This document shows positions 23,555 to 57,606 of a stretch of DNA of 64,000 nucleotides, in pieces. The DNA is taken from the NCBI GenBank assembly GCA_051362555.1, contig CM120640.1, positions 50,384,788 to 50,448,787 on the forward strand, read 5' to 3'. The notes under the pieces were generated by a model, which worked only from the letters and a program-made list of their open reading frames with translations, searched no databases and had not been told where the DNA came from. Made by a program: the position numbers and the translations under genes. Position 1 is the stretch's first letter, and the number at the start of each line of letters is the position of its first letter. Origin of the DNA: Lingula anatina (lineage: Eukaryota; Animalia; Brachiopoda).

Positions 23555-26500
23555 CTATCGAATACTTTGCCTCATTAGGGTATTTGTTCCCTTTTTAACA
23601 CTGCTTTTTTCAGCAGTCTTCTTTTTCTTTGCATCCACATCAAAGCACTTCCACAGGCGAAGAGTTTCGTCTGCTGCAGCTGATACAACTGTGCTTCCGT
23701 CAGGTGACATGGATAGATGAAGAACCCGTGCTGTGTGCCCTAAAACATGAAAGAGAAAAGGGGGGTTCATTCATTTAATTCAGTAAATTGCCTCCAGCTA
23801 TTGGTTTATTGTAAATTGAGACAATCTTGGTTTACCTCAATGAGCCTTGTATTTGAGAACCAGACGTACAAGATTTAATCCAAAGAGTAATGGTTGAAAG
23901 AAATCAAAGGCCGAGTGCTGTTTTTTTTTATTTCACTGTGAAGAATAGACAAAACTGAATAACACACTTACGTGTGACACAAAAACTAGAATTATTCTCA
24001 TCTTGTGTTAATACACCAAGACATAACATGGGTTTGTTATTTGATGTTATCAAGGTTACAAAATAATTGACAAAATAATGATCTAATGGCTTGAAACCAT
24101 CATGTACCAAACGTAGCCAAGGTCGGCAAAAACCTACCTGTTAGCTCAGATACTTTTGTCATACTTGGATATTTCCAAATAATAAGTTGATTTTGAGCAA
24201 ACCCATGTCCAGATACAAGCTCCTTGTATTCCTTGGACCAGAGGATAGAGCACACCTAGAGAACAAAAAATATTTTGTTACAAGTTCAATATATATGTCA
24301 AAGGTATACAATACATGATCACAATTCAGACCTCAAAAACAATAAAACCCCTTGAATAAGGGTACGTGGTCAACATTCCCTTCTTAAATACACAGAAAGA
24401 CATGACAGTCTTAGTGACTGGCCAGTCAATTAGATTTAAAAATTTTAATTAGAAATGTTGTAAAACATCGATTCTGAGCTCAGGGACAGGTTAAGCAACA
24501 ATTGGCGAGCAGGATAAATTTGTTTCCCCCAGATACCTTCAAATAACCTCTTTTCAAAGCAAGCTGATTGTGTTTTACTGACATGGTTGGTCTTCCATTA
24601 TAAATTGCTGCAGTTGAGATAACTGTTCATCTCTCATTCTACTGCAGTATTACCATTTAAAAAATTTCAACTGAAGAATTTTAGCAATCCTGGTTTAATT
24701 GTTTCATACCTGTGATTTTGTATCTACACTGCTTAGACAAGCCCCCGTGTTGACATTCCAGAAGCGTATGTGTCTGTCAGCAGTTCCACCTCCACTGGCC
24801 AGCACACTAGGTTGCCATGGGCACCATGCAACAGCCTAGCAGATTTTATAATAATTTCAGTTTTAAAATAATTGTAATACAGCCATGCATATTTTTTCAT
24901 CTTTTTAAAATAAAATGCTCATCTTGAACTTATTTAATTAAAACTATGAAAAATTTACTCATGGCGAAACTTGCAATAATAAAAAATAAATAAAATAAAT
25001 AAAAATAAAATAAAAAAATTAATTTTTTTTTAAAATCATGAACTAAAAATTATGTTCACTCACCTTTACTGCAGCTTGGTGCTGAGAGAATGTCAGGACC
25101 GGTGAAGGCTCAGACTGTCCCATATCTGCCTGCCATATGTTCAACAAGTTATCATTCCCTCCACTTGCCAGGAACCGCCCATCAGGAGACCACTTGAGCC
25201 CACACACCTCCTGGGTGTGTCCTAGGAGAGTGGCAATATGGTGATGGGGGACACGGACATCATGATGATGAATAGCACCACTGCGAGAACCACTTCAATG
25301 GATAAAAAGAATGAGAAACTGAATTAGGCTTTGGCTGAAACTGAAAACTGTATTACTGTAAAACATATTCAAACCTAAAGTGTTTTACATATAATAAAAT
25401 CTGGTTTTCATATTAAAATTTGTTTTTCACTTGCTAGATTTTAAATATATAAGACGTTCTTTTTCATTTACCAAGTTGGATGCAAATTTTATCATCAAAA
25501 GAAATTTGCCATGTATCCTAAATATCAATTTACTGCATACCTTGACAAAATGTATGAATTCCATGATAATGCTCCTACTCTGGCAGCATGACCTGTCATG
25601 TTTCTCACACGTTTCATGTTCTGTACATCCCAAAGCTTGAAGTAGTTAAAGTGTTATTTTTTTATTACTCAATACTTTAAACTTAATCACTCAAAGTGTT
25701 TTTATTATGCAAAACTTAAAAACTTTACTACTCAAATGATCAGTTCTCAACAACTTAAAAGCTCTTTCTTTAACTTCAAAGCCAATTTTAATAATGAATA
25801 ACAGAAGCACTCAACACCAAATAATTAACACAAATTTTTTTTTTTTTTACTTAGGATAAATATTTTTGAACTTTGAACACAGGTGTTGATCTAAAAATGA
25901 CAAGACCTTGGACATATCTCACCTGAACTTCGTTAGAACTATTACCAACTGCCAGGTAGTTCCCTTCCTTGATCCAGGACACAGAAGACACATAGTCCTC
26001 TGGGTTCTCCAGTTCCAGCAACTGCTCTATCTCCCCTGAGCCTGCATTCCATAAGTAGACGTGACCACCCAGGGCAACAGCCAGGTGATTGTTCACAGAC
26101 CAATCTAACAGATTTAGATCTGAAAAAATAAATAACAATAATTAATTAGTTTTTATGGGGTCTCCACATAATGGTAATCTACAAAATATCATGTTATGGG
26201 CACTTACATAGCTATATTTGAAAAACAACTGTTAAATGACTATGGTTCTGATATTACCAGATTTTCCTTTTTACAAAGAGAGGAGAAAAAATTTAACATG
26301 CTCTACTAACAATAGTCATCCAAAATCTCTGGGGCATCCAGTATTCTCTCTGGCACTTGTGGGATATGCCTTGTGGGCTTTTTGCAAGATCCTGGAGTTT
26401 TGTTCTGGCTACTGTACAAAACCTTTAGATTGTTCTGGTATCCTGCAATAAAACAGAGCAATTAGAATTTGAAAGACTCATTCTTCTATCTATGTCAAAA

Positions 26501-27820
26501 AAAAAAAAAAAAAATGACTGCATCAAACTACTTTGAGCCTTAATTCGTAAGAGAACAAAACTGCATTACTAGTATTCAGATGATTCTTTACACATCAGTT
26601 ACTCAAGTTGGGCTATTTTCATTGCACGAGCAATAGGCCTGTTTACTATGTCACACCCAATGTAAGAGGCTTTATGGAAGCTTAGCATCCAGACAATGTG
26701 CTTGTAACCCAAGAGACAAAGCCTGCAATATGATTGGGGATTAAAAATGAAAAATTAACATAGGGTATATAAAAAGCTAATTTACTGTTATATTTCTAAA
26801 AGAAAACTTCAAAAGAGCCATCTCATGAAATGTAAAAATTACTATCAAAATGCACAACCATAACCATCACTTTCAAAGGGGATGTTCATAATAAATGTAT
26901 TTAAAACTGGAAGGGACTTTATACTCACCCTCAGGGGCTTGAGGTGCTTTATTTTTGTAGGCAATTATTTTAGCATTTGCTGCATCACCATTTAGATTTT
27001 CATTCATGGCCCTCTGGTACTCTCTTTTGGATGGACTTAACATCTCATCCTCCACTGATTTTTCTGTCATTAGTTTGTAATGGCCTACATCAAACTGTGT
27101 AGCACCTCTATTTGGTATGAACCGATCACCTCCACTTGGTGTTTTGGGTGTTTTGCTGCCTCTGCTGGGTGTCTTATTTTTACCTTAGAGAAATAAAAAT
27201 GTGTAACAGTTTATTAGTCTTAAAACAACAAATTTATTTGATGATCCAAAGTTGGAGTTGCCAACATTTAGAATTTCAAATAAGTGACAAACTGTTTCAA
27301 AGTACAAAAGACTGAAAATGCTGAAGAGGGTTGAAATATGGGATCCATACATATCTTGGGTTTCACTGGAAATAAAAGACTCATAAACTTATGTCAGAAA
27401 ATAAGATCGAGTTTCCCTGCATTATCTTGGGCATTCAGCAACTGAACCTTGATAAAAGCCTGACAAAATTTAATTAAGACTGTAAATATTTTCTGTCATG
27501 GTAAACAATATGAAATTAACACTTCGTGGTGGCATGTATGTCCTGATCATACCTGGTGTTTTAGTAAGCCCTGGAGTCTTATTGGTCCCCGATGGGGTTT
27601 TGCTGCCCATGAGCAAACTGTTACTCAGAGATTTGTTCAGTGGCTTCATGGGCGTCTTGCAGATGCTCCCATTCATAGATACATTGCTGATTGAGCAGTT
27701 CATTGACGCACCCAGAGCTTCACTCTGTTTTCTCTGCCATCTCATTGGTGGTCCCTTTGTGATAGGAGCATCCATTTTCAGCAAGTTGTTCATATCACTT
27801 TCAAACTTGAAATGAGACAT
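23555..27820 (-). CDS. CDC20: Cell division cycle 20 (fizzy), APC/C co-activator
   Basis: Coding exons 27820-27553, 27183-26929, 26442-26311, 26119-25923, 25635-25541, 25292-25064, 24835-24710, 24255-24138, 23739-23555. C-box [29 protein letters not shown]40 repeats, C-terminal IR tail. A non-coding first exon ends at 27985. Confidence 0.97.
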
Positions 27821-28084
27821 CTGTAAGACAGCAAATACTGATACAGTGCGTTTCTTGTTATATGCCCAGGCAAGTGCAAGAACAACAGCCATTTTTAAAT
27901 ACCCTCAATAAGCAAATATAGGAGACACGGGCCATATCGTGTATACATAAACAAAAAGCTTTGTAACAGGTGAAAAAATCTTACCTTTCACATACAGTGT
28001 TCAATAATTTGTAATGCTTTTCTTTACTTGCAAGATTCTATCCAAGCTCAGGCAAGACAACGTTCGATATTATCTCGTTTTATC

Positions 28085-28219
28085 ATCGGCAAATTAATAT
28101 AGTTCTCTCTTGGTTTTCAAGTTTACCGCTTTTGATTGGATAGGCGGTGATCTACTCGAACGCTGATTGGATAATTTCGAAAAACAAACCTGTTCTCGTG
28201 CATTCTCGCGTTATCCAAT
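28085..28219. promoter_or_regulatory. Bidirectional CDC20/GPX7 promoter with CCAAT boxes and a CDE-CHR-like element
   Basis: ATTGG at 28135-28139 and 28166-28170 (31 bp apart), CCAAT at ~28215; minus strand AGCGG-TAAA-CTTGAA at 28130-28116. Confidence 0.65.
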
Positions 28220-31200
28220 ATGGAAACCTCCATGTCGCCAAAAATCTGTCCAAAAAATATTTTAAATGTTGTGTTGTTTTCATTCTTTTTTGTCAATATT
28301 TTTAATGAAATTTTATGTGGACCAGCAACAATAGACCCATTAAAAGTTAAAAAGAAACCAGGGTATAGACCGTCTACCGGAGGTTTACAGCCTGGAGAAA
28401 TAGTTTATGAAGATGTAACACCAACCACGGATGAACCAGAAAAAGACTTCTACATGTTTTCAGTAACTGACATAAAAGGAAAAACCGTTTCACTAGAAGA
28501 ATACAGAGGCATGGTACGTGATACAAAAAACTGTCAAAATCAGTTACAATCTGGGGGTGCAGCTAGAATTTTTTTCAAGACAAAAAACTGCAGCCCTTAT
28601 CAATTTGTAGACAAATTACAAATAAAAAATAAGTCAGAACTACTTTCGTGTTAAATACTCTTAATCACAATATTGATGCATACAACAAAATGACTGCCCC
28701 AATTTTAGTGCATTTAATTAGCCTTCTAGTAAATTTAGTACCTCAGCACCTGAACCACCTTATATGGACAAAAGCCAAGAATTTCGAAATGTGGGTACTT
28801 TTGTATTACGGGGGGGGGGGGGATTACTCCATGCACTTATTAGAGGCAAGATTAACGGTCCTCCTAAAATGGGCAATGCAACACTGAATTGAGTCATATT
28901 GTTAATGAAATTCTACTGGTATCCAGGGACTCTAAGTGAAAGGCAACCTACCTATTCAACATAATTTGAAGTTGAAGTGTTGTTACCTTATCTCCTTTTT
29001 TGTTATTGATATTAATATATTTTTAAAATTTCCGTTTCTTTTGCTTATATTAGGTTACCTTGGTAGTAAATGTGGCAAGTGAATGTGGATATACTGACAG
29101 TCATTACAAAGCACTTGTAAAGCTTCAAAATACACTAGCACCCAGTGGGAAGTTTACAGTATTAGCATTCCCTTGCAATCAGTTTGGGGCTCAGGAACCT
29201 AAGGTAGGTAGAGAATATATGCAGTCTCAATTAACAATAGCATCTATATTTGAATACATCATTGCTGAGAGTGAATATTGAACATGGCTATGTGAAGTTA
29301 TATATATATCTTGATTTATATTGTGTATGTCTTCAATATCATAATTGCACATTTCATTGAAGAAAATGATAGTGTTATTGTAGAAGATATAATGAATTAT
29401 GATGCATCTACAGTAATTATATCTCTGCATGTAACATCAAATATCCAGATCAGATGAATCCATTTTTGTATACAGACACTACTATTAATATTATTATTTT
29501 TTTAATTTTAGGATGAACCATCAATAGAAAAATTTGCAAAAGAAAAATATGGCGTGAATTTCCCTATGTTTTCAAAAATAAATGTTGTTGAAAAGGACAT
29601 TCCTGAGGCTTGGAAATTTTTAGAGGGTATGTGCCAGCAAAAAACAGAAGGCATTGATGCAAGCTGTTTTTCATTGTATTATTGTACCACCAGCGTTAGC
29701 GCTGGCGGTACACATGGTTTTAGTCCCGTCCGGATCGTTCCGCCGGACAGCTACCGTTACCGCTTCTCCTCCTAGACGGTAAGGGCCCCCGTACCCATCT
29801 CTTGGATTTAGGTCACCTATAATCTCAACTCGTTCCACGTAAAATTTGGGCTTTGTCGGTTTTGGGGTCTAGGTGTGGCACTCATTGCAATGCACCCTTG
29901 TCTAAAAATGGCAAAATTAAATGCTAATTATCTACCCTACGGAAGGAATTATGGGAAAAATTTCTACAGACGGCTTTCCAAAAGTCATATGTGTAGATTT
30001 CAAATATGCCCTTGGATTTGACCTTTGACCTTTATTTCAAGGTCAAACGAGCCAAAATTTTCAAAAAAATTAATTTTTTTACGAAAAAAAAATTATTTGC
30101 ATTGTTATTCAGACACCACACAGACTTAACCAATAATATTATTGGAAAGTGTTACCCTTCAGGTCATCTTTCATCTGCGTGAATTTGGGGTCAATCGGTG
30201 CATTTTCACGGGAGTAGCGGCCATAAGATACCGAAACTGAAAACTGTCTCTAATTCGGGAACCGTTAATGCTAGAGACCCATTCTTTTTTGCATTTTATA
30301 GAGCATGTAAAGCCCAACACTAGAAGTGGTCTCGGTTTTTTTGTATTCCATACGGTTTTCGAGTTACACTGTATCAAAAAGTACATATTGGTGGTGAAAG
30401 CAAAATGTGCAGTACGGTAATGGATAATAAATTTTGAACTCCGGAAAAATAAAACATAAGGCTTGGCAAAGCAGACAACTTGTGGTCAAAAATGACATTA
30501 TTTCATCAAATTTGAACATCTGGAACTTCAGACCACCTCCCATTTCAAGAATTTTGACCAAAATGACCTTTTCTTTATTTTAATTAATTTTTTCTGTTGG
30601 AAATTTATGGCACATTATGGTGACTCCAAAATTATAACATTTAGTCCCTTATATCTCCAAAACTGGCAGAGATAGGTCCATAGTTACTATTGAAGTTGAA
30701 TAGGAAGTCATATACTGGCAATCTTAATGTGACCTTAAAATTGACCTTTGACCTACTTTTCACCATGAACTGAACTTTGCAAATTTTGGTTCCCTTTTAT
30801 CTCCAAAACTGGCAGAGATAGGTCCATAGTTACTATTGAACTTGAATAGGAAGTCATATACTGGCAATCTAAATGTGACCTTAAAATTGACCTTTGACCT
30901 ACTTTTCACCATGAACTGAACTTTGCAAATTTTGCCTCCCTTTTATCTCCAAAACTGGCAGAGATAGGTCCATAGTTACTATTGAAGTTGAATAGGAAGT
31001 CATATACTGGCAATCTAAATGTGACCTTAAAATTGACCTTTGACCTACTTTTCACCATGAACTGAACTTTGCAAATTTTGGTTCCCTTTTATCTCCAAAG
31101 TTACGCTGTATCAAAAAGTACATATTGGTGGTGAAAGCAAAATGTGCAGTACGGTAATGTATAATAAATTTTGAACTCCGGAAAAATAAAACATAAGGCT

Positions 31201-32537
31201 TGGCAAAGCAGACAAGTTGTGGTCAAAAATGACATTATTTCATCAAATTTGAACATCTGGAACTTCAGAGCACCTCCCATTTCAAGAATTTTGCCCAAAA
31301 TGCCCTTTTCTTTATTTTAATTAATTTCTTCTGTAGGAAATTTATGGCACATTATGGTAACTCCAAAATTATAACATTTAGTCCCTTATATCTCCAAAAC
31401 TGGCAGAGATAGGTCCATAGTTACTATTGAAGTTGAATAGGAAGTCATATATTGGCAATCTTACTGTGACCTTGAAATTGACCTTTGACCTACTTTTCAC
31501 CATGAACTGAACTTTGCAAATTTTGGTTCCCTTTTATCTCCAAAACTGGCAGAGATAGGTCCATAGTTACTATTGAACTTGAATAGGAAGTCATATATTG
31601 GCAATCTAAATGTGACCTTGAAATTGACCTTTGACCTACTTTTCACCATGAACTGAACTTTGCAAATTTTGGTTCCCTTTTATCTCCAAAACTGGCAGAG
31701 ATAGGTCCATAGTTACTATTGAAGTTGAATATGAAGTCATATACTGGCAATCTAAATGTGACCTTGAAATTGACCTTTGACTTACTTTTCACCATGAACT
31801 GAACTTTGCAAATTTTGCTTCCCTTTTATCTCCAAAACTGGCAGAGATAGGTCCATAGTTACTATTGAAGTTGAATAGGAAGTCATATACTGGCAATTTA
31901 CTGTGACCTTGAAATTGACTTTTGACCTACCTTACGATGAACTTAACTTTGATTGTACCATTTTTAGGCATATATATTTTTTGCACATTTTGAAAATTCT
32001 TGTTGATTGCATTTTTACAGCTTGTCAAGCAGAAGACTGGTGGCTGTGACCCTTATTTTGTGTATGTGGGGGTCTATACGAATGCGCTTGCTCCAGCTGG
32101 TGGTACAATATTCGGAGGCGGTATCGCCTCTCTGATCCTCTAGTTTCTATAAATTTATATGACATATTTTCCCTCTTCTAATTATTAAATAGTGTTTTAT
32201 CTTTCAAATGAAAAAATAACTATCTGGCTGATTAAATGGGCAAAACACTTTTTATCAGTTATTTTCCCCCCACAAAGTGTATTTCATATGACTGATAAGA
32301 GAATAATTTTTATTATTATTCAATTAAGTTTAAATATTATGGCAATATTTTTCAGATTTTTCAAGACTGGTTCCAAATTGGAACTTCTGGAAGTATCTAA
32401 TAAATCCCAGTGGTCATGTTATAGCCACATGGGGTCCCTGGATACCAGTGGAGGATGTGATTGAACAGATAACAGAGGCTGTACATGCAGCAGCTGATGA
32501 CTTGGTTGTATCTGACACAATACACGAGGAACTGTGA
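28220..32537 (+). CDS. GPX7: Cys-type ER glutathione peroxidase (GPX7/8 family)
   Basis: Exons 28220-28513, 29054-29203, 29512-29626, 32356-32537. Hydrophobic N-terminus, VVNVASECGYT (TGT Cys at the active site), LAFPCNQFGAQEP, PNWNFWKYL, C-terminal HEEL ER-retrieval signal. Confidence 0.93.
29680..32144 (+). mobile_element. Helentron-associated non-autonomous element (HINE/DINE-like) carrying tandem repeats, in GPX7 intron 3
   Basis: Subterminal inverted repeat TATTGTACCACCAGC (29680-29694 / 32096-32110), 5' palindrome, 3' hairpin GAGGCG-GTAT-CGCCTC (32115-32130) followed by CTAGTT; internal 146-bp arrays. Confidence 0.8.
30363..31950. repeat. 146-bp tandem repeat arrays inside a 737-bp higher-order duplication
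   Basis: TCTCCAAAACTGGCAGAGATAGG recurs at 30654, 30800, 30946, then 31391, 31537, 31683, 31829; block 30363-31099 is repeated from 31100. Confidence 0.95.
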
Positions 32538-33120
32538 TGGAGAACTGCTTTAACCACACCTCTGATCCAAATGTTGTAATTTTTTATTCCTTGGGCCTTG
32601 TTATATCTACTTGCAGATCTCGCAGATGCTGTAGTATCAATGCATATGTTACATTTAATATTTCTGAAATTATGTGGGTGTACTAGATCAATTTTATTCA
32701 GTCAAGATATGTTGATAATCAGTGCCAGGGTGCAGTTCCTTTGAAGGTCAAATATACTACATACTGCATGTCTTCCTATGCAGTTTTTTTTTTTTTTAGA
32801 TCCATTGCTTTTTCAGATAACATTTTCTGAAAATATGGAATGTCGTTTGAATTGTGGAATCCAATATGTGATAAACAATACAATTGTTCTGTTAAACTTA
32901 ATTTTCATCAGTTTAAAAATGCCGGTAATTATTTCATGCTAAGAGTTCAAGTAGTACCGTTTAATAAATGTTTGCTCATCTCGAACAACAAGAACTAGCA
33001 TAAAAAAGCACAAGGACAGTTTTTATTTTTCTTTTTTATTGATACTTTTGTACTTTTGGTCATATAAAAACTGAATGCTTAAATCTCTGAGTCTTTTAGT
33101 TATTTCCAATTGTATTCATC

Positions 33121-33177
33121 AGTCGGTAATCCAAGGTCACCCACCATGATGGTTTAGGGCACCTCTTCATGGAGACT
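33121..33177 (-). promoter_or_regulatory. SECIS element 2 of selenoprotein P
   Basis: Minus strand AGTC-tcc-ATGA-A-GAGGTGCCC-T-AA-ACCA-TCA-TGGT-GGGTGACCTT-G-GA-ttacc-GACT: AUGA/GA quartet, helix II, apical AA and mini-stem, helix I AGTC/GACT. Confidence 0.85.
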
Positions 33178-33429
33178 TCGAAGAAAATAGATAACAGTAT
33201 GTCCCCAAAGATAAAGCAGCTTAAGGAAAGACAACATGCCACTTAGGCAATCTAACAGCATTTATCAGAGCATAAGTCAATGATTAACTAAAGATATTTA
33301 CCTTTGATAAAATTTGCTTCTGATCAACATGTAAATCAAATGTAGTTCAGTATATCTGACTAACATACAATCTTGAATATATATGTTCCCTAACATTTAA
33401 GGACCAGAAAACCTTGCTACAAACCACAG

Positions 33430-33492
33430 TTCAAGCATCTGGAGTACAGGGACCTCTCGGTTTTACCCATACTCCTTCATTAATAACTTGGT
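33430..33492 (-). promoter_or_regulatory. SECIS element 1 of selenoprotein P (type II)
   Basis: Minus strand CAAGT-tatta-ATGA-A-GGAGTATGGG-T-AAA-ACC-GAGA-GGT-C-CCTGTACTCC-A-GA-T-GCTTG: 10-bp helix II, apical AAA, GNRA-capped mini-stem, helix I CAAGT/GCTTG. Confidence 0.92.
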
Positions 33493-33673
33493 TCAATGCA
33501 GCAGTGGATTCCATGGTCACTTAGATGTTAGTCGATTTACTTGAAGGACCTGAAGTGTTTTAAGTGTTGAGTGATATTTGATCTCCATTTGTTTAATTTA
33601 GAATCCCATCCCAAAAAGATGCTCCAAGTAAATCATTTTGCTTTGTGTTCACGTTTGAGTCTTTTCTAATACA

Positions 33674-36600
33674 TTACTGTCACTGTCATGGACCAGGTTG
33701 TCATTGTCAGCTAGTCATTTTGTCAGAAAGAAAACTCAGTTGTCACTGCCAAGATTTAGTAGGGTTGGCAGCTGACAAGGCCTGTCATTTTCATGGTCCA
33801 GAGTGTCACTGTCAGTTGGAATTAACAGCTGAAGATTTCAGTTGTCACCGTCAAGTATTAGACTGGCACTCTCATTTTGGCACACCTTCAGGAAAAATCT
33901 GTGCCTCTCATTGTCAAGTGGGGCTAGAAGCAGCCAGCATGGTTTGTCATTGTCATGACCAACATTGTCAATGTCAACTGGGTTTTCTTTCAGAAGATGA
34001 ATCTTGCTGCCATTGTCAAGTGGAGCTGTTAGAAGCTAGCATGGTGTGTCACTGTCATGATCCAGATTGTCACAGTCAACCAGGTTTTCCTTCAGAAGAT
34101 GTGTCTTGCTGTCATTGTCAAGTGGGGGTGGTATTGGCCAGTGTTGTGTGTCATTGTCATGACCCAGATTGTCACTGTCAACTAGGTTTTCCCTCAGAAA
34201 ATGAACCTTTTTGTCACTGTCAATTGGAGCTGGTAGTGCTCTGCATATTGTGTCACTGTCATGGCTCTGTGTGTCATTGTCAGCTAGACTTTCCGTCTTC
34301 AGAAGAATGTTGCTGTCAATGTCAGATGGGATTAGAATCGACAGGAGAGGCCTGTCACAATCAAGAACCAGACTGTCAGTGTCAGCTAGACTTCTTGGTG
34401 GAAGATGTACTTAGTTGTCATTGTCATGAAGTGGGAATGGTGTTAGGAGGCACTGTTTGACACTGTCAAGTTGGATCTTTCTGCTGTCATGTTGCATATG
34501 TTGCTATAGAGTTTTGTCAGTGACAATCTACTGTCTTTTCTCTACAGTGTGAAATCAGGGCTTTACACTTTCATGGACTAACTTCTGAGGTGGGATCATG
34601 ATATCATTTACAAGATGTGGGGACGTTCAGTAGTTCGGAGTTACTCTGACATTGGCATGACATGTGTTTTTTATTAGTGTTGCCAAAATTTGGTAAATTT
34701 CTGCAGTGGCAGAGAGAACTTTCATCAATAGAAACACCTGCTTCTGATCACAAACATTTTTGAGACTTATACTTGTATCAGGTCATGTTTGTTTGTCATT
34801 GTCAGGTGGTGGTGGATCTGTTTATGTCATTTGGTCACTGTCAAGTAGTACAAAGACTGCAGGTATTTTGACTTGGTGAAGAGTCTTTGAGGTCATGAGT
34901 TGTTGTCTGTCATGTGAAGTTAGATGGTTCTTGTGTGTCAGACATGTGATGTGACATTTTCTTGGATACAGTTAATAACTGACATCAAATGGCATCAGTC
35001 CCATTGTTTTTTAATTGATCGCAATGGGATGTATTTACACCTGCTCACTTATTTTCTACTTGTTTATTGTCATCCTGGTTCTCCTGTTCCATCTGCTGCT
35101 CATCAGACATCACTTCGATTTGGTTTGAGTCCTCTTCTTCTAATGGACCCTTCCTGATAGTTTTGTTGTCCCTGTGCTTCTTTGATATGGGACCAGTTGT
35201 CGTCATGGAGGTAAACAGCAATTCTTCTTGTGCCAATTCGTTGGTTTCAAACTTGAAAAAAAAGTTTTGCAAACTTCACTTCAGAGCATCCTAGTAAACA
35301 GTACTTTTGTAATACAAGTACTTTATTCTGGATGAGTTACTGTTACATATCTGTTTTCCTTTAAACTTTCGACCAAATATGATTATTTTCGGCTTTGCTC
35401 AGCATATTTGTTTGAAATGTGTTGATAGAAGTTGAATACATGCCTACAGTTCGCTGCCTGGAAAGGTCTAACAAAAGACCACTTAAACTTTGGAACTTTA
35501 GTTCTTTATGGCCTCGTTCTGGGCGGTTGTAACAAATATAATAACTAAAAAAGCACTCAGAGCGCAGACCACCGCCATGGAAGTTTAGTTCCCATTCTTG
35601 ATTAATGAATCAATTCACGGATCACCAACAGAATCGAACTGATTTAAATTTCATTTCTGAGCTATCTTGGAAATTTTCTCAAAATCCGCTCATAACTTTT
35701 TTCAGTTGGGTTGTTAACAAAAAAAAAAAAAAAAAAAAAGAAAAAGAAAAAAAATTATTCCATAACAGAAGTAATAATAATTTCTTTGAGGAGGTCGACA
35801 CTGTTTGCAATTTTTATGAAATTCTAGAATTGAGCAGACAGTGCAATCATTAGCGGTTGAGGAAATATTTCATCAACGGGAAGTGCACCCAGGCGGCTGT
35901 CCTCTCAACTTAAAACAAAACAGGTTCTAATGAAGCCGATCTGAACTTGGCATTTGTTTGAAATTAAAACGGGTTTAATGAAATTAACAAAATGTACTTC
36001 AAACATTTTTGAAAATAAATTATCATTTGATATTTCGCAAAACATTTACTTTACCTCATCTCCTGACCCCAGATCATCGACATTATGCTTTTCCTCTTCT
36101 TGGGTGGGGCAAACGCCACAAGGCTCGTCATAGTAAGTGGATAGAATGGCTGCTTCCGTATACGGATATGCCAACCAGCTTTTAGGAAATGGTATGAAAA
36201 ATGCTAGGCGGCCGCATCTAAAAGAATAATATTGCACTTCTCGTTAGTATTTTTTATTCAGAAATTTATTACGACGAGAAGAAAATGTTTTTCACAGACC
36301 GCTGTTAACATAAGATTCGAATGTCTGTCTATCCTTCATTAGTGTTTTTGTATGTTCTTTTATTTCGTACAAATATCACTGTGTACCTGTCATAAACGAA
36401 AATATCATCTTTCCCTCCTTCTAGTGTATACCAGATGTCATTTTTGTGCGTCGATCTGTATACCGGAAAGCGAACTCTTCGTTGAAGTGTGCCGTGCATC
36501 AGTTGAGCGTGCCATTTTTTGGAGTTAATTGCCAAAAAAGAAATTTCGTCTAAGCCATGTCTAAGGAACTTTTGTCGCAGGTATTCCAAACTGAAATGTA

Positions 36601-37422
36601 ATGTTGCTAATGATAAAATGGTATCTGGCTGAGCAGAAAAAGTACATTAATCAATGTTTTCTTGGAAAAGGGTTTATGGAGAAATGTATGCCTTGTTTGA
36701 GGCAGCTGTCTCTGGAAGATTTATTACATGCTTGTGTCTGGAACGATATGTTTCGTCTGAAATTTGGTTATTATTTCAGATAAATGCCCTCAATACGGCC
36801 TCAATATTACGATGATTGTCGTTGTTGATTTGGCGCAAACATTCCTACTTACTACCGCCCCTGCCTGAGACAAAGTTTTCAACTGGCCTGAAGAAGTGAG
36901 ACGACGGTAACGTTTCCTCGGTGATTTTCCATCGGACTCTCCCCGTCCACGAACCACGATGGTGGTGGTGCACATTTCACAGCGGCTCCGGCATTTCCCG
37001 CTAGGCACAGGATGGTCGCTATTAGCAGACCTGTCCCAGCCGCCGCGGCCCTGTAAATGTTTCTGATATTTTGTTTTGTTGCGCTTGTTTTATCAGATGT
37101 TTTATGACGCACAGCATTTAAACATTTGTTAGAATTTACATTTATTAAAACTAAGATCTAATAAACGGATATTAGATCTTAGATTAAAACCAATGCTATA
37201 AACTGAAAAAGTCAATGTTATTCTCAATCAAACTATATATTTGAAGATGTTATTTTAACCCCGAAAAGCACACGGACTGCCACATCGTAATATTTTTTAA
37301 AGCTAGATGGGCGATTTGATTTCAAAGCCGTGCTCGAAAAGTCTTTACAGAGAACATATCACAAGTTTTATAAATTATATCTGGCTTTGGACTCACCTGC
37401 CGATTTTTACTTGAACACCCAG
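33674..37422 (-). CDS. SELENOP: Selenoprotein P with about 58-59 selenocysteine (UGA) codons, ~720-735 aa
   Basis: Exons 37422(?)-37397, 37050-36853, 36590-36387, 36217-36055 and 35290 (or 35251)-33674. N-domain VTVVSLLQAS-U-KLC (TGA at 36881-36879), GGKDDIFVYDRCGRL, YPYTEAAI, CGVC. The last exon is open apart from TGA until TAA at 33676-33674. Two SECIS elements lie downstream. The start codon and the last acceptor are uncertain. Confidence 0.95.
33677..34430 (-). repeat. Coding tandem repeat of ~102 nt (~34 aa, three U-x-U motifs per unit) in SELENOP
   Basis: TCAGAA(G/A)A recurs on the plus strand at ~33990, 34092, 34194, 34299; example unit UQUQQDTSSEGKPG-ULUQSGS-UQUHTMLASNSST. Confidence 0.88.
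35543..35795 (-). mobile_element. Degenerate short HINE/Helentron-like element in SELENOP intron 4
   Basis: Minus strand begins ACCTCCTCAAAG...TTATT, contains a simple-repeat tract, and ends GGCGGTGGTCT-GCGCTCTGAGTGC (hairpin)-TTTTTTAGTT. Confidence 0.5.
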
Positions 37423-37499
37423 AATATGTAGATGTTTTTGTGATGCTCAATAAAGACCTTGCTTCACTGTTCCTTGTATATGTGTAATATCAAACTGCG

Positions 37500-37600
37500 T
37501 ATGAAGCTCGACCCTTGATCTACTCAGCTTATATATGCTTGTGTGACCTGGTTTGTTTACTCCGATAATTGCCTGACTTTGATACTGAGTAAATCAGCAG
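37500..37600 (-). promoter_or_regulatory. SELENOP core promoter: TATA box with upstream Forkhead-type and nuclear-receptor half sites
   Basis: TATATAAG at 37535-37528, GTAAACAA at 37560-37553, AGGTCA at 37549-37544; exon 1 donor CAG|GTGAGT at 37397/37396. Confidence 0.55.
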
Positions 37601-38299
37601 TTCGAGGGCACACCACTGAGTTCTTACGTGCATGACCCTGAAGTACTGAAGTAACTTTGAGGAAAATTATATAAAACGACCAAAGATCATTTACTCCACT
37701 GACTATGGGAAAAGCCTTTTAACTTGTACATTTCTAAAAAAAAGTGTAAAGAGCAGTCATCGGAGTCATTCACAGAAAAGATTTTCACGTGTGAAAAGTC
37801 TATGTACAATGTACGGTATGCACATTGACATCCCACACAGATAAATATGATTCCAAGATACCGAAACTAGGAGCATCTTTGGACAATACGTTTACTGATG
37901 AAATTATGATTTACGCATACCTAAACTTATTTTGTGCTTAATTATACTACACGTAGGGCCTAATCAAAATTCAAAGCGAAAATATTTTGTAAAATGGGCT
38001 AAATGGCTAGCTTACTCTGGAGGGGTGGAACCTGGAGCGAAAGTCAAAGTAGTTTGTAGCATAGGTTTGACCAAGGAGTTGTTGGTTAAACTTAACGCTG
38101 GCGTTTTAAAAAATATTATTCATTTATTTTCCGCAAACGCTTTTCCAAATTGAATAATAATGTTTTCATTACATTTTTCATTTCTTTTTATTCTCATATG
38201 TCCGAAATGTAATCTACTAGTAGTAGCTGTCTATAAAAAAAAGCACAATGCCGCCCTGCACTCAGATTTAAAAAAACTCCAATTTCATCGTGCCCTCTA

Positions 38300-38875
38300 C
38301 CAGAGTTTTGTCTTCTCAAATCGGCCGATTGTGCTTCGAAAGGCTCAACAAATCGGTGCATCAACAAGTTTAGCACGTACTTTGTAATTTTTCATAGGCA
38401 CATTTAAGAAAAGAAAGCCAAGACATATATGTACTCGATTCAAATATTACTTTAATTGTACTGTGTGTAAAGGAGACAAAATGCCCCGTTGTTAACGTTT
38501 GGATGTTGCCCAATTGAAAATGTAATCGTAATCTGAATATAGAGGTTACCGGGTACGTGTAGTTACTGTAATGGGAAGAAAACCATCTTAGGGTTATTTC
38601 AAAGTGCCGAATTGCGAAGTTGAGTTGGATATTAATTTTTTGTTTTGAATACCAAGTGTCCATTTCACAGTTCACAAAAACTAATGGCAGAACTTTTCAG
38701 ACTTAAATTTGTAAGAGGCAGTGGTGCATACCAGGTAACTCTGAAAACAATTTAATTTGAAGTTCAGTGTGTTTATACATGTTTTTAATTTTTTATCGTG
38801 TTTTTGTATTACAACTTTCCAAATTATAACATTAATAAAGGTCTTACTATATTAATAGAGAAGACAAAACTCTGG
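38300..38875. mobile_element. MITE with TA TSD (Tc1/mariner-type) between the SELENOP and YIPF3 5' ends
   Basis: TA|CCAGAGTTTTGTCTTCTC ... GAGAAGACAAAACTCTGG|TA; perfect 18-bp TIRs. Confidence 0.75.
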
Positions 38876-39160
38876 TAGAGGAATATAGGCCTACGTTATG
38901 ACAAACGAGCCCTCACATACACTGTAGTCATAGGGGTGAAGGAGAAAGAAAGTAGATATTCCCTTCTTCTGAATTAATGAATGATGGAGGCTGATTGAAA
39001 TACCGAAAGAAAGACTAGAATTTGTGAGGAAACGCAAATAATATCAAGTGCCATAGAGTGCTATAACTATGTGATGTAGACTAGTATGTGATGCCTGCTT
39101 ATGCTTTCGGATTGGGCTCCTCTTGGACTCCCATGACACCTGTCATTGAAAGAAATCATC

Positions 39161-43248
<4,088 letters not shown>

Positions 43249-44489
43249 ATGTATGTGCCTTTTGTAACAATTGTTATAAAATATGTTCATTTATCTTACT
43301 TTGGTATACAGTGCAGATCTATGGTGATGGGGCTTTTTCATAGCTCAGCATTCTTGGGATTTCCTTTGTAGTATAATTTCTTTCAATCTTTTGATGAGCA
43401 GACTCACCTTGTCTGTACATATAGCCATCACCTGTGTCTGTCATCAATGTCATCATAGTCGCCATGCTTTTTCAAAACAGATAACACTAAAAATGGAAAA
43501 CCATTTTATCTTTTCTGTTCAAATTTACAGAACAAATAAATATTCATAAAATACAGCTTTATTTAAAAAGCAGCTTGATCAGGCCATGTTTTCAAAGTTA
43601 TGCTTATTTCTGCACATATGCAATACAGGTAACACACTTAGGAAAACCGTTCCACCTATTGTTTTCAAACTTGCAGTACTGATGTATAAGACTGAAATAC
43701 AGGACAAGTTCAAAAATTGGCATTTTCAAGATGTGACTTTGAACTTCTACATGCCTGAAGACCTATGCTAGGCACATTTTCTGAATATCCATGATACTTA
43801 TATGTATATTATGAAATATCGGTGGTGATAATGCTGTTAAGAATTATGTAAAGTTGCAAAAAAACCTCTTGGGCATTGTTGCCATAATGACAATTAAAGG
43901 AAAACCATGTTACTTGTGATTTTCAAACTAAAAGAAAAGATTCTTAGGGCTGAAATAGAGCTTGAATTGGAAAACCAACTGGATTAGTTTTTTTTTTTTT
44001 TTTTTGTGAAATTTTCAATTTTCACATATTGGCATGTATAAGGTGGGACTTACAACTCCCACAGGCTTGAAGCCACAAGGTAGTCACATTTGCTGAATTT
44101 CCATGTTACGTATTGAAGATTATCAAAAATTGGTGGTGATTATGCTACTGTTCATTGTGTAGCATTGCAACAAAATTGACAAAAAAAAACAAACTATTCC
44201 TTGGATTGCCATCTTACACTTTGAAAGGAAAAACTGCATTACCTTTACTTTTACTTCCATGATTCTTAGGATTGACATACAGCTCATATTGGAAAACTAG
44301 CTTAATTAGATGATTTTTCTTGAACTTCTGCTTTTTTTTTTCAATTTTTGATATTTCCATTTTTTTATCCTGGCATTTTCGATGTGTGAATTTGAACTTT
44401 CATGGGCCTGAAGCCATATGCTAGTTACATATTCATAATAACAGTGTTACCTGTTGTGCATTAAAATTTGGTGTTAATTTTGCTATTAA

Positions 44490-44863
44490 AGGGATAATAA
44501 CTCTTCGTATGAGATCTATATTTCACAATAAAAACATTGTAAACAACTAATAGAAATAAAATATATTCTGTTTTACCAAAAAAAAAAAACAGCAGTTATA
44601 GCTATTATTCTGATATCTGAGCTTGTCATTGGACCACGTGACCTCCATAGATGGCTATACTCTGTTAAAATCTTTTAAGAGATTATAAAAAAAAACAAAC
44701 TTTTAAGGAAAAAAAAAAAAACAGAGACAAAAAAACTTTTAAGAAAAAAAAAATGGACTAACTTTGAATGTATAAATGGTTTCATTAACCATTGGTAAGT
44801 ATGGGAAAATTGTTTACTCCATGAAAATTCATTTTTTGGCCAAAACGAATAGTTATTATCCCT
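44490..44863. mobile_element. Non-autonomous TIR element with TTAA TSD; copy 2
   Basis: Same TIRs and internal sequence as 15944-16290, with expanded A-tracts. Confidence 0.85.
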
Positions 44864-46689
44864 TTAAGCATCATGTAATATTGTATCAAAATTGACCCAA
44901 TAAATATTTTGTGCATCATTATTTCCTGCTTTTTGGTTGCAGATTTACAGCTCATCTCTATAATTTCTCTTTGCACAATCATATCATTTTGCTACAATTT
45001 CAAACTGTTTTTGATTTCATTCTTCTTTTCTGCACTTGTGTTTTCTTCAGTAGCTGGCATTTGACAGTTGATAGCCTTTCGCTAAGTTATGATGTATTTT
45101 ACTTGTGTGTTTTCTTTAAGGTTAGCTTAACTGTATTCATGTCTTTTTTTTTTTTTTCTTTAATGGTGTAAAGTTGTGGCAAGCAATTTGTCTAAATTTT
45201 AATTATTTGTGATATTTTGTTAGTATAATTGTATTTTCAAATCTTAAATTGTAAACATAGTTCATTGCAGTATGATTAGGAAACCAGTCATTGTTGACTA
45301 ATTGTACTCAAAACTCCTCTACTTTTTTTGCATAAAAGCTACTGTAACTTTTTATAAACTGACCATTTTTCTATCAATTCCTTCAGGCCACTAGAAAGTG
45401 AACTGGTATCAACTGAGGCATCTACCAGTACTATAACCAGACATAACCTTCGTTGCAAAATCATGGAATTCAGATATTTTTAATTCAACCGTGATGCCTG
45501 CCTCTGGAGCCCTGTTGGAATGAGCATTTGGTGCCACGATAAATGCAATGTTAAGACATGATATAAAAAAAACATTGATGGATGTGACTGTAATATATCA
45601 TGAAAACAGTACCTTCACAATTTTCTATCACATTTTATCACAATTAAAATGCCTTTTTGTACATGTGTCATGTAGATGTACCATTTCTCTTCTGTAAATA
45701 GAGATGTGTAGAATGGAACATTAGGGAGGAAAATGATTTTAAATTCTTGTATTTAGTTTTGTTCAAAGGTGTATATTTTGACATTAATTTGAGGAAACAT
45801 TTCCTTGACTGTAAATAAAGGGAATCCAGGGATTTTTGTAAAACACAAAGGTTGCAGTTTTGTAATTAAGGGGAAATGATAGAATCTACTTCAGTATTTC
45901 TCTGAAAGAAACATGCCTGAAAACTTAACCTAACAACATACATGCATACCCAAACTTCTTTACACATGTAATAAAGCTCTTTTGCATTTTTATACATATG
46001 TAAGGATTTCAAGGTATTATCAGTTGTATAGCACTGTAAAACTTTGCTATTGATGACATTTTTCATAATTTTACTGACATCCAGCCAATTAAAGGTGTTA
46101 AAAGGGTCAACTTAGTTGCATATTTTTAAGAAGTAAAATGTGTCATTGTGCACACTTAAATTATTGTGGTAATTTTATTTAATTTTGTTGAGAAAAGAAT
46201 GGGTATTAGGAACATGTATTGCTTTTTTTGGTTGTACGTACCATAGAATAAAGCTTAAACTAAATAGTATTTTTTTTTTTTTTGTCTTGTTTTGTTTTGT
46301 TTTTATTACTGATCCACAGAAACCTCACTGAATCTGTAGTATGGGTCTGACCGTCTTCACAAAGAAATATATTTCTCATTCCTACAACCACGCAGGTCGG
46401 AGGTTTTGGATTGTGTTAGTTGTTCCAAATTGGGTGGAAGATAGTGGAAGATCCGTTTATATTGGGCTGGAGAAAGTAAACAGTCTTTGTAACGCCCTCT
46501 ATGATTGGACACTGATATTTTGCCTTTACTTTCCTAAAGTTTAATAGTGATATGAAAGCAAATTATTCATCAACAAGTATTCGTGCATCGCTTTTGCAAC
46601 TCATATCAAACTTCTTTAGTAGACACTTTTTTTTCAGGAAGGAAGTTGAGTAATTTAAAGAATTGTTCTTTTCAAGAGAGCGGTTGTGG

Positions 46690-46798
46690 TTCCCAACCAA
46701 TCACAACACGTGAAATAAAGAGGGGAAACCCACCCATCCGGCCATTTTGAATCGATCCTCCAAAAGAAAACAGAGGCGACAAGTGGCTGCGCTGACAG
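46690..46798 (+). promoter_or_regulatory. Probable PACSIN promoter and non-coding first exon
   Basis: Local CpG rise, CCAAT at ~46697, GCCATTTTG (YY1-like) at 46741, donor CAG|GTAAGT at 46798/46799. The link to PACSIN is inferred. Confidence 0.5.
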
Positions 46799-49700
46799 GT
46801 AAGTCTTTTACAAAGTTGATTTTTTACTCTGATTGTCTTTCGTACCACATGGCGGTATTTTTTGATACATTATAGATTTAACTGAAATGAAAGAACGTTA
46901 TATGTAATTGAAAAATGCAGGGTATTTTTTAATAGGGTGACAGGTGAGTTTTCTGGACCTGCCTCATCTTGTGACCCCTCCCCAAGGTAGATGACCGGTA
47001 AGCCTTGGCGACGTGATTCACGGGCGTTAACTGTTCATCTTTGAATTAGCAGTTCAAAGTATAATCCAGAGTTATGGTTGCGCATGTTCTCATAAGTCTC
47101 ACACAGTCTGTTATGTTCCAATGCATAACCATTTTTCAAAAAGTCAGTGTGATAACATTTTAAAGACGCGATTGTAACAGATGGAACAATGGTTGAGACT
47201 GTCATCCTTTTTAAATACTAAGAAATAGAGCAATCGTGTTAAATAGCAGTCTTAGAATAAAAGAAAACTAATGTTAAGAATAGAATTGTGTAATGCGAAT
47301 AAAGAAAAAAATTAGTATGGTTGTAAGACGGTGAGACACATGGGTCGTGTGAAATTTCCTAAAAGTAATGCTGTCCGAAGGCAGAGATGGTTTGGCTTGA
47401 TATTTGCAAACATCTGGCTAAGTGCTTGGCTAGAAAGTGTGGCTCTATAGAAAATGTACCCGATATCTTACTAGTGAGTTACAGAGCATTTTTTGTTACT
47501 CTGGTTTTGTAAGATATTTAATGCAATGTCATTACATTTCCTGGTTATCCAAATTTGTTGTGGTACTGAATGATGTGGAGTTCTTACAAATTTATAAATA
47601 TACTATTTCAGTACCACAGTTATGTCCAGTGGCCTAAGCTGAGTAAATGGTAACATACTTTCCTTGCAGTTGCATTTCACATAAAGTGTACATTTCAAGT
47701 AGAAGTGTACATTTTGAGCAGGGAATATCAGTTTCTATTTTCATTACATAGGAAGGTGCCTAAGAGCATAAGCTGTTATAAATAAGGCACAGGCTGTCCT
47801 GTATAAATATGAAGATTTAATACAAAGAAAGACCAGGATACTGTCCTTTTAAGTAACATGTTAACAGGTGGCTTATATCGAAAGAATAAAGGCAAAACCA
47901 ATAAAAGATTGAAGTATTTTCATAACGGTTTCTTTTATCTTGACATGTACACTGTAGCACCGTTTGTGGAATTTCAGTGTACCCATCGTCTCTTGGTCAG
48001 TTTTGTAAAATTGCTATTGATCTCCCAAGAGAATGGGTTCCTTGCCAGTGATTAAATACAAGCCATCGATCACCTGTGGGTAATGTTACCAATGTGCTTA
48101 TAGCTTGGTCAATACTTACCCAGGGTACATATTGATTTTCAAAGGAAGAACTGCCAAGGTACTTGATTTCATCAATTTAGTTTGTTTGCTGTTTCCCCAG
48201 AGAAAATTTGTTGTTACTGGGATAACACATTTTGAATTTGTACAGATTTAGATTTAGAAATTTCATTTTTGAAAATTGTCTTAAAATAGTGAATAATTCC
48301 TCATTTACACAAAGGTTTAAATAGGAAAAATTTTGTTATTTGGATTCAGTAAACCATTTAGTCAGAAACTTTGCTTACCATATATCTATCCATTTAATGG
48401 TGTCTGGCATTATGCAAATCAAGTTAAAATAGGAAGTTAAGTGAAAATTATTAAGAAATTAAGATAGACCTTAAGCTTGAATGCAGTCATGCTTCACTAA
48501 GGTATGAACTTCAAGTGATGTGAAAGTAAATGGGAATAAGGAATTAAGATGTGCTTAGTTAAGTTTGAGAATGGCAGGAAAATTTGATAATTAACCAGGC
48601 ACCAGTGGTCCGCTAGTAGATTTTGATCCATATGAAAATGTAACATCCATGTCCTGATTTCCATGTAGCAATACTTCACTTGCCTATTTATTGCCTTAAT
48701 TAAAGGATTTTATTACATTGAATTACAAAAATTATCGATAGATTTTCCCCAGAAGATTCACTAAATGAATGAAGTTGATGTATCTTCTCTTTGGCAATGA
48801 GCAGAGTCATTAAATTTATTGAACCAATTGATCCAGCTAAGAAAGGAGAGAGGAAGGCATGCACAGAGTTGATTTCTTTAAGATGGTGCGGTTCTTAACT
48901 AAAAACAATATCATATTGTTTGTTGCCATGGTCAGTAGAATTCATAGTCCCTCTTTGACAAGTTTGTGCTGACTTATTAGACCTATGAAATGCTTATTAC
49001 ATTATCCTTTTAAAGAATAACTTTGAAGTATTATAGTAGTTATTCAAGTATGCATTGGCATTCTGCAAAAAGCGGTATATTTTTGTAAAGATTTTTAAAT
49101 GTATTTTCACACACACACAAACACACACAAACACACACACACACACACACACACTGTTTATATGACATGTATAGCTTCCATTTCACCTATTGTTAATTAT
49201 CACTCTTTAAAATCTCTTGAAAAATTATCTGCTGGTTGTTTTTGGGTGAAGGCTATATATCTTAATAAACTTCTCATGACTTGTATCTTAATTATCTGCC
49301 TCTCTGGGACGACTGTTGAATGACCCAAGGTGTCGGTTGCAATGATGTATGTACATGATAATGACAGAAGTAGAATTGTTGTGGCATTCCTGCCTAGCAT
49401 GATGCACTACATTAGGCTAGCTTTTTGGCAGTGTAATGGGCGATTCATGCAAGTTGTAAAAGGACCATTTGTGAAATAAATGTCACACCAATTACCAAAC
49501 TTACTATTTAGATTACTTGAAATTTGACTTTTTGGTGGAAAAAAATTGACCTAGGCAACTGATGGTTTTGGGTAGTGTTAAATTTTAGCTGTTTACTAGT
49601 CCTCTCAGATGTTCAAGTTGGGAAGCTGACAATATCAAAACCCCTAGCTTCCTTATTAAAGTCTTATATTTTCACACACATTTCTTGTGAAGGCAAGCTC

Positions 49701-56414: not shown

Positions 56415-57606
56415 GTCCTTGGTACTGGACTTTAATTTTCATTTATTTTGTCTTTAATGAAGTGTATATTGTTGTCTAGTGTTATTTGTCTTTGTTTCTG
56501 TGTTGGTGGATGCATGAAGCAGTTGTTTACAGACACCTCCCCTCATTCCTGTCCTCAGCTATCTTCACCTTTTGATTCCTGGATGATAAAAATACCTTCT
56601 ACTGGATTGCAGAATGTACACTGAACTCACCCAAGCTTGAATTTTGTTTTATCCAAGTAGCTGCAAAAAAGTAGCCAAATCAAAGCTTTAAACCAAAACA
56701 ATGAAAGATTGGGAATTTAGAATGCTTTTCTTTTTCTATAACCAATATATCTGTTCCCAAGTTATGTTTTTAAGTTTGAGTTTATGAATACCTGTAGGTA
56801 ATGTTGAAAGGTGGGGTCAGGTTGTTGTTCTCCGGGTACTGTGCATTCCTTTGCAATGACGGATGACAGTCACAGATAGTGCCTGGGGGGTCAGAGAGAA
56901 GTTTGCCAAGTATACATGGTCTCATCTATTTCACATGTTTGGGATTTTTTGGGCCTAGTTTGTTGGTTTTTGACAGCATATATCTTATTCAATAGATTTT
57001 CATTGGTGACAGTCTTAGGTCTGTGCTCTAAGTGAAAATATTTGATGCTTGGGATAGAAAACTTGAAAATAAAGTACTCACAGTGTCCTTTGCTTAAGTT
57101 GTTCGGCTCGTGGATCAATTGAGATATTGAAGGTGTTTTATTTCTTTGTGAACATTAACAGTGGGAACATTGTAAAATACTTTAAGAATGTATAGCCTTT
57201 ATACTATGAAATGGTACAGGGGGATTTAAATTCCAAAGATGCAGGTATAAATATTTTGGGAATTAAATAAAAATGCTGTTCCTAATTGTGAAAAATGATT
57301 TAAAATTTTTTTGTTTGATTTTTTTCTTTTTTTTTTTTTTTTTCTATAAAGCAGATCAGGAGGGATGGGGATATTTAGTGAAGCACGTAGTTCCAGGTCA
57401 CTGATTCTATTGTGTATGCTTCATTTTTGTAAAACGATCTGGATATGTATACTCAGGAATTCATGATTTACATGATCACCTGCTTAGATGTTGAATATAT
57501 AGCTCCACAATAAGTGCAGATCAAGATGCACTGTAATAATCATTTTTTTTATTATTTCAGATTTCATTATAAGTACTGGTAGTATTCTATACCACTAACT
57601 TTGACC

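Follow-up and report, generated by a model that had tools for sequence, protein, structure and literature searches.

The locus considered here raises the question of how, and from which codon, ribosomes begin translation of a SELENOP mRNA that has no AUG ahead of its signal peptide. The gene lies on the minus strand of a stretch of 64,000 nucleotides from Lingula anatina (GenBank assembly GCA_051362555.1, contig CM120640.1, positions 50,384,788 to 50,448,787), which is referred to below as the window, and all coordinates are counted from its first letter. A preliminary description made from the letters of the window had noticed the missing AUG and proposed a CUG as the start. The gene has five exons on the minus strand, defined by RNA reads together with Pfam matches, and its main features are as follows:

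37397..37499, minus strand: exon 1, comprising an AUG-free leader and the first 9 codons (RNA reads; upper end inferred).
37051..37396, minus strand: intron 1, GT..AG, phase 2, with 197 junction reads in 5 runs.
36853..37050, minus strand: exon 2, encoding the predicted signal peptide, the start of SelP_N and the first Sec codon (Pfam PF04592, E 7.9e-12).
36879..36881, minus strand: first Sec UGA, in the UxxC motif (codon 66).
36387..36590, minus strand: exon 3, SelP_N (RNA reads, Pfam).
36055..36217, minus strand: exon 4, SelP_N (RNA reads, Pfam).
35251 to about 33080, minus strand: exon 5 (RNA reads).
33674..35251, minus strand: coding part of exon 5, with 57 UGA codons and a TAA stop (33676).
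33427..33489, minus strand: SECIS element (Rfam SECIS_1, 30 bits, which is below the gathering score of 35, E 0.0064; fold z -3.58).
33110..33175, minus strand: putative second SECIS, recognised by eye from an AUGA..AAA..GA layout in the fold (z -0.85), with no Rfam match.

All four introns are seen in RNA reads, and exons 2, 3 and 4 each score above the Pfam SelP_N cut-off of 23.2 bits (45.5, 50.4 and 34.5 bits, respectively). Read from the CTG at 37422, the frame runs for 722 codons without a TAA or TAG before the TAA at 33676, and the TGA codons in it number exactly 58, where about 58 had been estimated previously; it holds both an N-terminal UxxC with an in-frame UGA and a UGA-rich tail without UAA or UAG. 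In combining SelP_N and its UxxC with a long UGA-rich tail, a predicted SECIS in the 3' UTR and a hydrophobic N-terminus, the gene resembles the multi-Sec SELENOPs of metazoans, and its 58 UGAs fall inside the range known for SELENOP, for which passages of PMC13134290 give 132 UGAs in bivalves and 162 in lamprey. Part of the Sec-rich tail (33908-34324) consists of 4.1 copies of a 102-nt (34-codon) unit, so that the UGA count has grown by tandem duplication.

SELENOP lies tail to tail with a plus-strand glutathione peroxidase gene (28175-33080; Pfam GSHPx, with Cys at the active-site motif), presumably GPx7/8-like, the 3' ends of the two meeting near 33080 in RNA reads; a 146-nt tandem repeat of 8.9 copies (30645-31951) lies inside the peroxidase gene span. 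Further away are a minus-strand CDC20/fizzy gene (24900-27900; Pfam WD40_CDC20-Fz) and, on the plus strand, exons that by eye are PACSIN/F-BAR-like (57583-59500), one of them without a Pfam match. A low-level spliced transcript on the plus strand (38850-47000) diverges from the SELENOP promoter, with GT..AG joints at 40130-40427, 41897-42047 and 42169-42324 in all four of four runs; inspection of its ORFs by eye suggested no known family, and it may be an lncRNA or belong, as far-off 5' exons, to the gene near 57.6 kb.

Whether an AUG is truly missing depends on where the transcript begins, for which six RNA runs from three studies were available, each read at 6-26%. Tissues are incompletely sampled, in that one of the three studies (run X12) barely expresses SELENOP, and expression is low in X17; the transcript is abundant, with a depth of 50-170 in 6% of a run. 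The exon 1-2 joint 37397|37050 occurs in five of the six runs, from two studies (38 reads in X15, 54 in X16, 2 in X17, 47 in X18 and 56 in X19), and with these 197 reads it is the sole junction between exons 1 and 2 among the joints listed, the close-up of this region having only one other, that between exons 2 and 3. Loose ends of reads at the exon-2 acceptor consist of exon-1 letters (agreement 1.0 in X16 and 0.89 in X19), the depth of intron 1 beside that acceptor is 0, and neither a foreign loose end nor another joint appears there among the rows listed. The missed exon that had been mooted is left unsupported, since none of 65 X16 reads at the acceptor carries another first exon (upper bound 4.5%). 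At its upper end the transcript is preceded by a promoter element:

37528..37535, minus strand: TATA box, TATATAAG at 37535, with read depth 0 above 37559.

RNA 5' ends accumulate below this box, at 37484 and 37473, while from 37560 to 38059 the depth is 0 in X16, X17 and X19. The earlier reading of exon 1 (a TATA at 37535, a donor after 37397 and no ATG on the minus strand) is borne out in the sequence.

Several ways in which a conventional start might have been overlooked were also considered. A stronger acceptor near 37203, which had been suggested together with a GTG start at 37112, has no joint, and RNA depth at 37060-37109 is 0 in three of three runs (the reads at 37145-37186 belong to a piece of repeat flanked on either side by loose ends). 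A 1-nt assembly indel hiding an ATG had likewise been suggested, and none is found in RNA reads from 37439 to 36853; at 37426-37397 in particular, X16 (depth 53) and X19 (depth 53) show no letter change or indel. An independent DNA contig has 0 differences from 36560-37177, exon 1 being outside its span. In these samples, the single exon 1-2 joint and the indel-free reads refute both the other acceptor and an indel in the assembly. A trans-spliced leader was rejected, since the rows listed include no loose end at the transcript's 5' terminus.

Downstream of exon 1, the first AUGs that a scanning ribosome would meet are the following:

36992..36994, minus strand: out-of-frame AUG 1, with G at -3, opening a 5-codon ORF that ends at TGA 36979.
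36973..36975, minus strand: out-of-frame AUG 2, with G at -3, opening a 50-codon ORF that ends at TAG 36563.
36930..36932, minus strand: first in-frame AUG, codon 49 from the CTG, with C at -3, a conserved Met internal to SelP_N.

That the first two ATGs of exon 2 (36994 and 36975) are out of frame, and that the first in-frame one (36932) follows the hydrophobic segment, agrees with the preliminary description. None of the ten substitutions listed in exons 1-2, whether arising from RNA editing or from an allele, creates an ATG. It is thus confirmed that the SELENOP mRNA has no AUG ahead of its signal peptide: in the real transcript, as in an exclusively non-AUG mRNA, no in-frame AUG lies upstream of essential coding sequence.

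The stretch ahead of the first in-frame AUG has the character of coding sequence, to judge from the start of the SelP_N match, from synonymous variants in exon 2 and from a hydrophobic core like those of homologues. The SelP_N match begins 17 residues before the first in-frame Met (residue 23 of P0001 as against residue 40), and the part of it that precedes this Met holds a Cys, a Pro and a Trp that vary little or not at all among 12 aligned sequences. Identity to L001, the SELENOP mRNA of a relative, is 7/14 over codons 35-48 and 73/137 over the rest of the domain. The core of the signal peptide is located as follows:

36996..37028, minus strand: hydrophobic core of the predicted signal peptide, codons 17-27 (Kyte-Doolittle 11-mer mean 2.65).

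In 19 of 20 homologues the corresponding value is 2.27-3.08, the remaining one having 1.77.

The variants in question come from X19, which represents a diverged haplotype whose leader has six substitutions and one 1-nt deletion and whose exon 2 has four substitutions; X16 has 0 differences from the assembly in the exon 1-2 region. Over 32600-37480, X18 and X19 carry numerous fixed differences from the assembly, which suggests a distinct population or a cryptic lineage under the same species label. All four X19 variants in exon 2, two of which fall in signal-peptide codons, are synonymous in the SELENOP frame (p about 0.005-0.008), and in each other frame none of the four is. Among the indels listed, the three in coding sequence all keep the frame, whereas none of the five in non-coding sequence is a multiple of 3 (p 0.018).

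The leader of the same haplotype also limits where translation could start. The stop codon concerned is:

37447..37449, minus strand: in-frame leader TGA, TGT in X19.

The in-frame TGA upstream noted in the preliminary description is therefore present in the assembly (at 37449) but not fixed. The X19 deletion, at 37440, falls within the ATG-free stretch, and this deletion and the TGA together confine the start to below 37440. Leader variation in X19 ends at -5 of the CUG, the 47 nt above -4 holding 7 variants and the 30 nt below it none (p 0.039, for a boundary picked after the data had been seen and in one run only). For the 19-nt leader extension that a start at the downstream AUC would imply, the chance of 0 X19 variants is about 0.05.

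Homologues indicate what has happened to the start codon. Twenty-five homologous proteins were collected, of which five without the CxxPxx[WL] motif were dropped, leaving 20 to be scored (several of these rows come from one cluster and are not independent). All 20 have a Met upstream of the motif, whereas the Lingula mRNA has none. When the closest Met situated 15 or more residues upstream is taken, its distance from the conserved Cys is 23-27 residues in 17 of the 20 (35, 35 and 47 residues in the others). L001 (80-1917) is a partial spliced SELENOP mRNA with at least 44 UGAs and an AUG start, the AUG being 22 codons before the conserved Cys. The corresponding place in Lingula would be:

37044..37046, minus strand: GCG, the inferred site of the lost AUG, in a gcc-xxx-g context, 24 codons before the conserved Cys.

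An ancestral AUG was thus likely lost in this lineage, and since the related multi-Sec mRNA L001 keeps its AUG, the loss looks lineage-specific. The GCG at 37046 was itself rejected as a start, being two mismatches from AUG and so remote. The internal Met at 36932, for its part, has the same offset in 12 of 17 scorable homologues and in L001, and would seem to be an old structural residue of the family rather than a new start.

Taken with the absence of an AUG, these observations make non-AUG initiation ahead of the signal peptide highly probable. Two codons are near-cognate, in strong context, in frame and open:

37420..37422, minus strand: CUG, the predicted start codon, with A at -3 and G at +4, invariant in X16 and X19.
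37402..37404, minus strand: AUC, a rival near-cognate start in frame, with A at -3 and G at +4.

The CTG at 37422-37420 and its context are as previously described, and the proposal of a non-AUG start ahead of the signal peptide finds good support; the AUC at 37404 had been overlooked, and the CUG is the best rather than the sole candidate. That it is the main start site is a reasonably likely prediction. A strong, open, in-frame CUG arises by chance in 1.1% of 20,000 dinucleotide shuffles of exon 1, or in 2.2% of the 1,556 that are ATG-free, whereas any strong near-cognate codon arises in 19% (27% of the ATG-free). Passages of PMC9082881 and PMC5666671 describe CUG as the most efficient near-cognate start, with a G at +4 being critical, although the y1 allele of the fly illustrates that CUG can fail as a start (PMC4528330, in part). 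Conservation of the CUG, which the preliminary description had named as a check, is seen only between two haplotypes of one species label; the distant relative L001 has AUG in its stead, and word-index protein searches and a metagenome scan with P0001 gave no close relative.

It is less likely, indeed unlikely, that initiation takes place mainly at the AUC or is divided between the two codons, with a signal peptide that would function despite a shorter N-region. The distance to the conserved Cys would be 28 residues from the AUC and 34 from the CUG, the former being nearer to the 23-27 of the family; a GC-rich stem begins at +12 from the AUC; and for the extended form of PTEN, according to a passage of PMC9082881, the start was assigned first to a CUG and later mainly to an AUU. 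As against this, the AUC lies downstream of a CUG in strong context, CUG is the generally more efficient of the near-cognate codons in the reviews just cited, and X19 has no variants between the two (the p of about 0.05 given above). It is quite improbable that an alternative first exon or promoter, used in a tissue or stage outside those sampled, brings in a normal AUG, the transcript seen here being minor or poorly translated. Such a reading can appeal to the small number of runs and the fraction of each that was read, to the strong differences in SELENOP expression between runs, to a few X16 bases that extend to 37510-37559, and to a donor-like site at 37627 just after the ATG at 37633. This is the nearest upstream ATG, however, and it is out of frame and stopped at 37531; an exon beginning there was rejected, there being no RNA reads, and if spliced from 37627 it would be out of frame with exon 2. 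The zero depth above 37559, the absence of any other joint or foreign loose end among those listed, and the abundance of the exon-1 transcript all tell the same way.

Initiation at the internal AUG at 36932, by leaky scanning or by reinitiation after the 5-codon ORF, is very improbable as the main route; it would give a cytosolic form that keeps the UxxC and the Sec tail. This AUG is the first in frame, has G at +4 and lies 47 nt past the stop of the short ORF, but the signal-peptide codons and the CxxPxxW motif upstream of it are kept like coding sequence, and its Met is an internal residue family-wide (12/17). Leaky scanning to such a form, as the preliminary description had envisaged, is weakly supported: since two out-of-frame AUGs with a purine (G) at -3 stand ahead of an in-frame AUG with C at -3, the cytosolic form would need reinitiation and is likely to be minor. 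It is hardly credible that the gene, having parted with its AUG in recent times, is in decay or scarcely translated and that a second SELENOP copy serves instead: frame-keeping indels and synonymous variants between diverged haplotypes argue against decay, as do 58 UGAs without a UAA or UAG over 722 codons, a SECIS and high expression.

If the CUG is indeed the main start, 43S complexes would scan a short AU-rich leader (34% GC), some of them initiating at the CUG and fewer at the AUC. Initiation at the CUG would use Met-tRNAi, by the general rule set out in a part of PMC5666671. The signal peptide, of roughly 30 residues and slightly long, would presumably be cleaved, giving a secreted full-length SELENOP whose mature protein would be that of AUG-starting relatives after cleavage. 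Most ribosomes that passed over both codons would be captured at the out-of-frame AUGs at 36994 and 36975, and the chief consequence would be a reduced protein yield from each mRNA rather than an additional isoform. The 2019 metazoan SELENOP survey reportedly found low efficiency at the first UGA in oyster, and also a leader ORF and structure over the start codon. It is possible, if somewhat doubtful, that the lower output was selected as throttling; the loss could equally be tolerated, given an abundant mRNA with its bottleneck at the first UGA. It is more doubtful still that the lineage swapped its AUG for a CUG and two decoy AUGs as a selected valve, spacing ribosomes on the 58-UGA message and tying output of the selenium carrier to start-codon stringency; if so, nature would here have adjusted the rate of initiation to processive selenocysteine insertion.

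One RNA structure is predicted near the start:

36978..37047, minus strand: predicted GC-rich structure spanning signal-peptide codons, its first base 30 nt downstream of the C of the CUG.

Within the SELENOP coding sequence, the stability of 60-nt windows is indeed highest at +21 and +31, yet this structure is not more stable than shuffles (z -0.98, -1.29) and is explained by GC content, so that shortly after the start no stable structure beyond base composition was found. Downstream structure is reported to be helpful at a spacing of 14-18 nt (PMC5666671), and the predicted stem, beginning at +30 from the CUG, lies beyond this. Hairpins pairing the CUG region with the leader were rejected as weak (z -1.51), with alternative pairings competing.

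How ribosomes pass dozens of UGAs on one SELENOP mRNA is an open question, and part of PMC5727441 proposes that initiation matters for this passage. A near-cognate SELENOP start would offer a natural one-base test system, in which CUG could be compared with AUG and full-length with truncated product. If the present reading is true, the gene would add a secreted and presumably invertebrate case to the few genes that start solely at a non-AUG codon, and AUG-based annotation of SELENOP is predicted to drop the signal peptide. A full-text literature search, which the 2019 metazoan SELENOP survey fell outside, found no non-AUG or CUG start for SELENOP; a CUG-started SELENOP is provisionally new, and that survey may cover this species.

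Among known systems, TXNRD3 is an intracellular enzyme with a single Sec. In mouse testis this selenoprotein (TXNRD3/TGR) has a CUG start that gives a long isoform, according to a passage of PMC10523455; the likeness lies in a selenoprotein mRNA with a CUG start, and the difference is that in Lingula the non-AUG start would be the sole route to a signal peptide and a secreted 58-Sec protein. In vertebrate SELENOP, initiation in vitro is enhanced by an initiation stem loop (ISL) formed by the signal-peptide codons (PMC5727441). The Lingula structure also lies over signal-peptide codons, but the ISL follows an AUG, and GC content accounts for the Lingula structure (z about -1); L001, by contrast, has a clear, ISL-like hairpin over the end of its signal peptide (z -4.36). 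Closest in their dependence on a near-cognate start for a functional protein are EIF4G2, which starts at GUG (a passage of PMC9082881), and CATSPERtheta, for which CUG is the sole start (a passage of PMC10523455); these are not selenoproteins and were shown by experiment, while the Lingula case is built on sequence and its loss of the AUG looks specific to one lineage.
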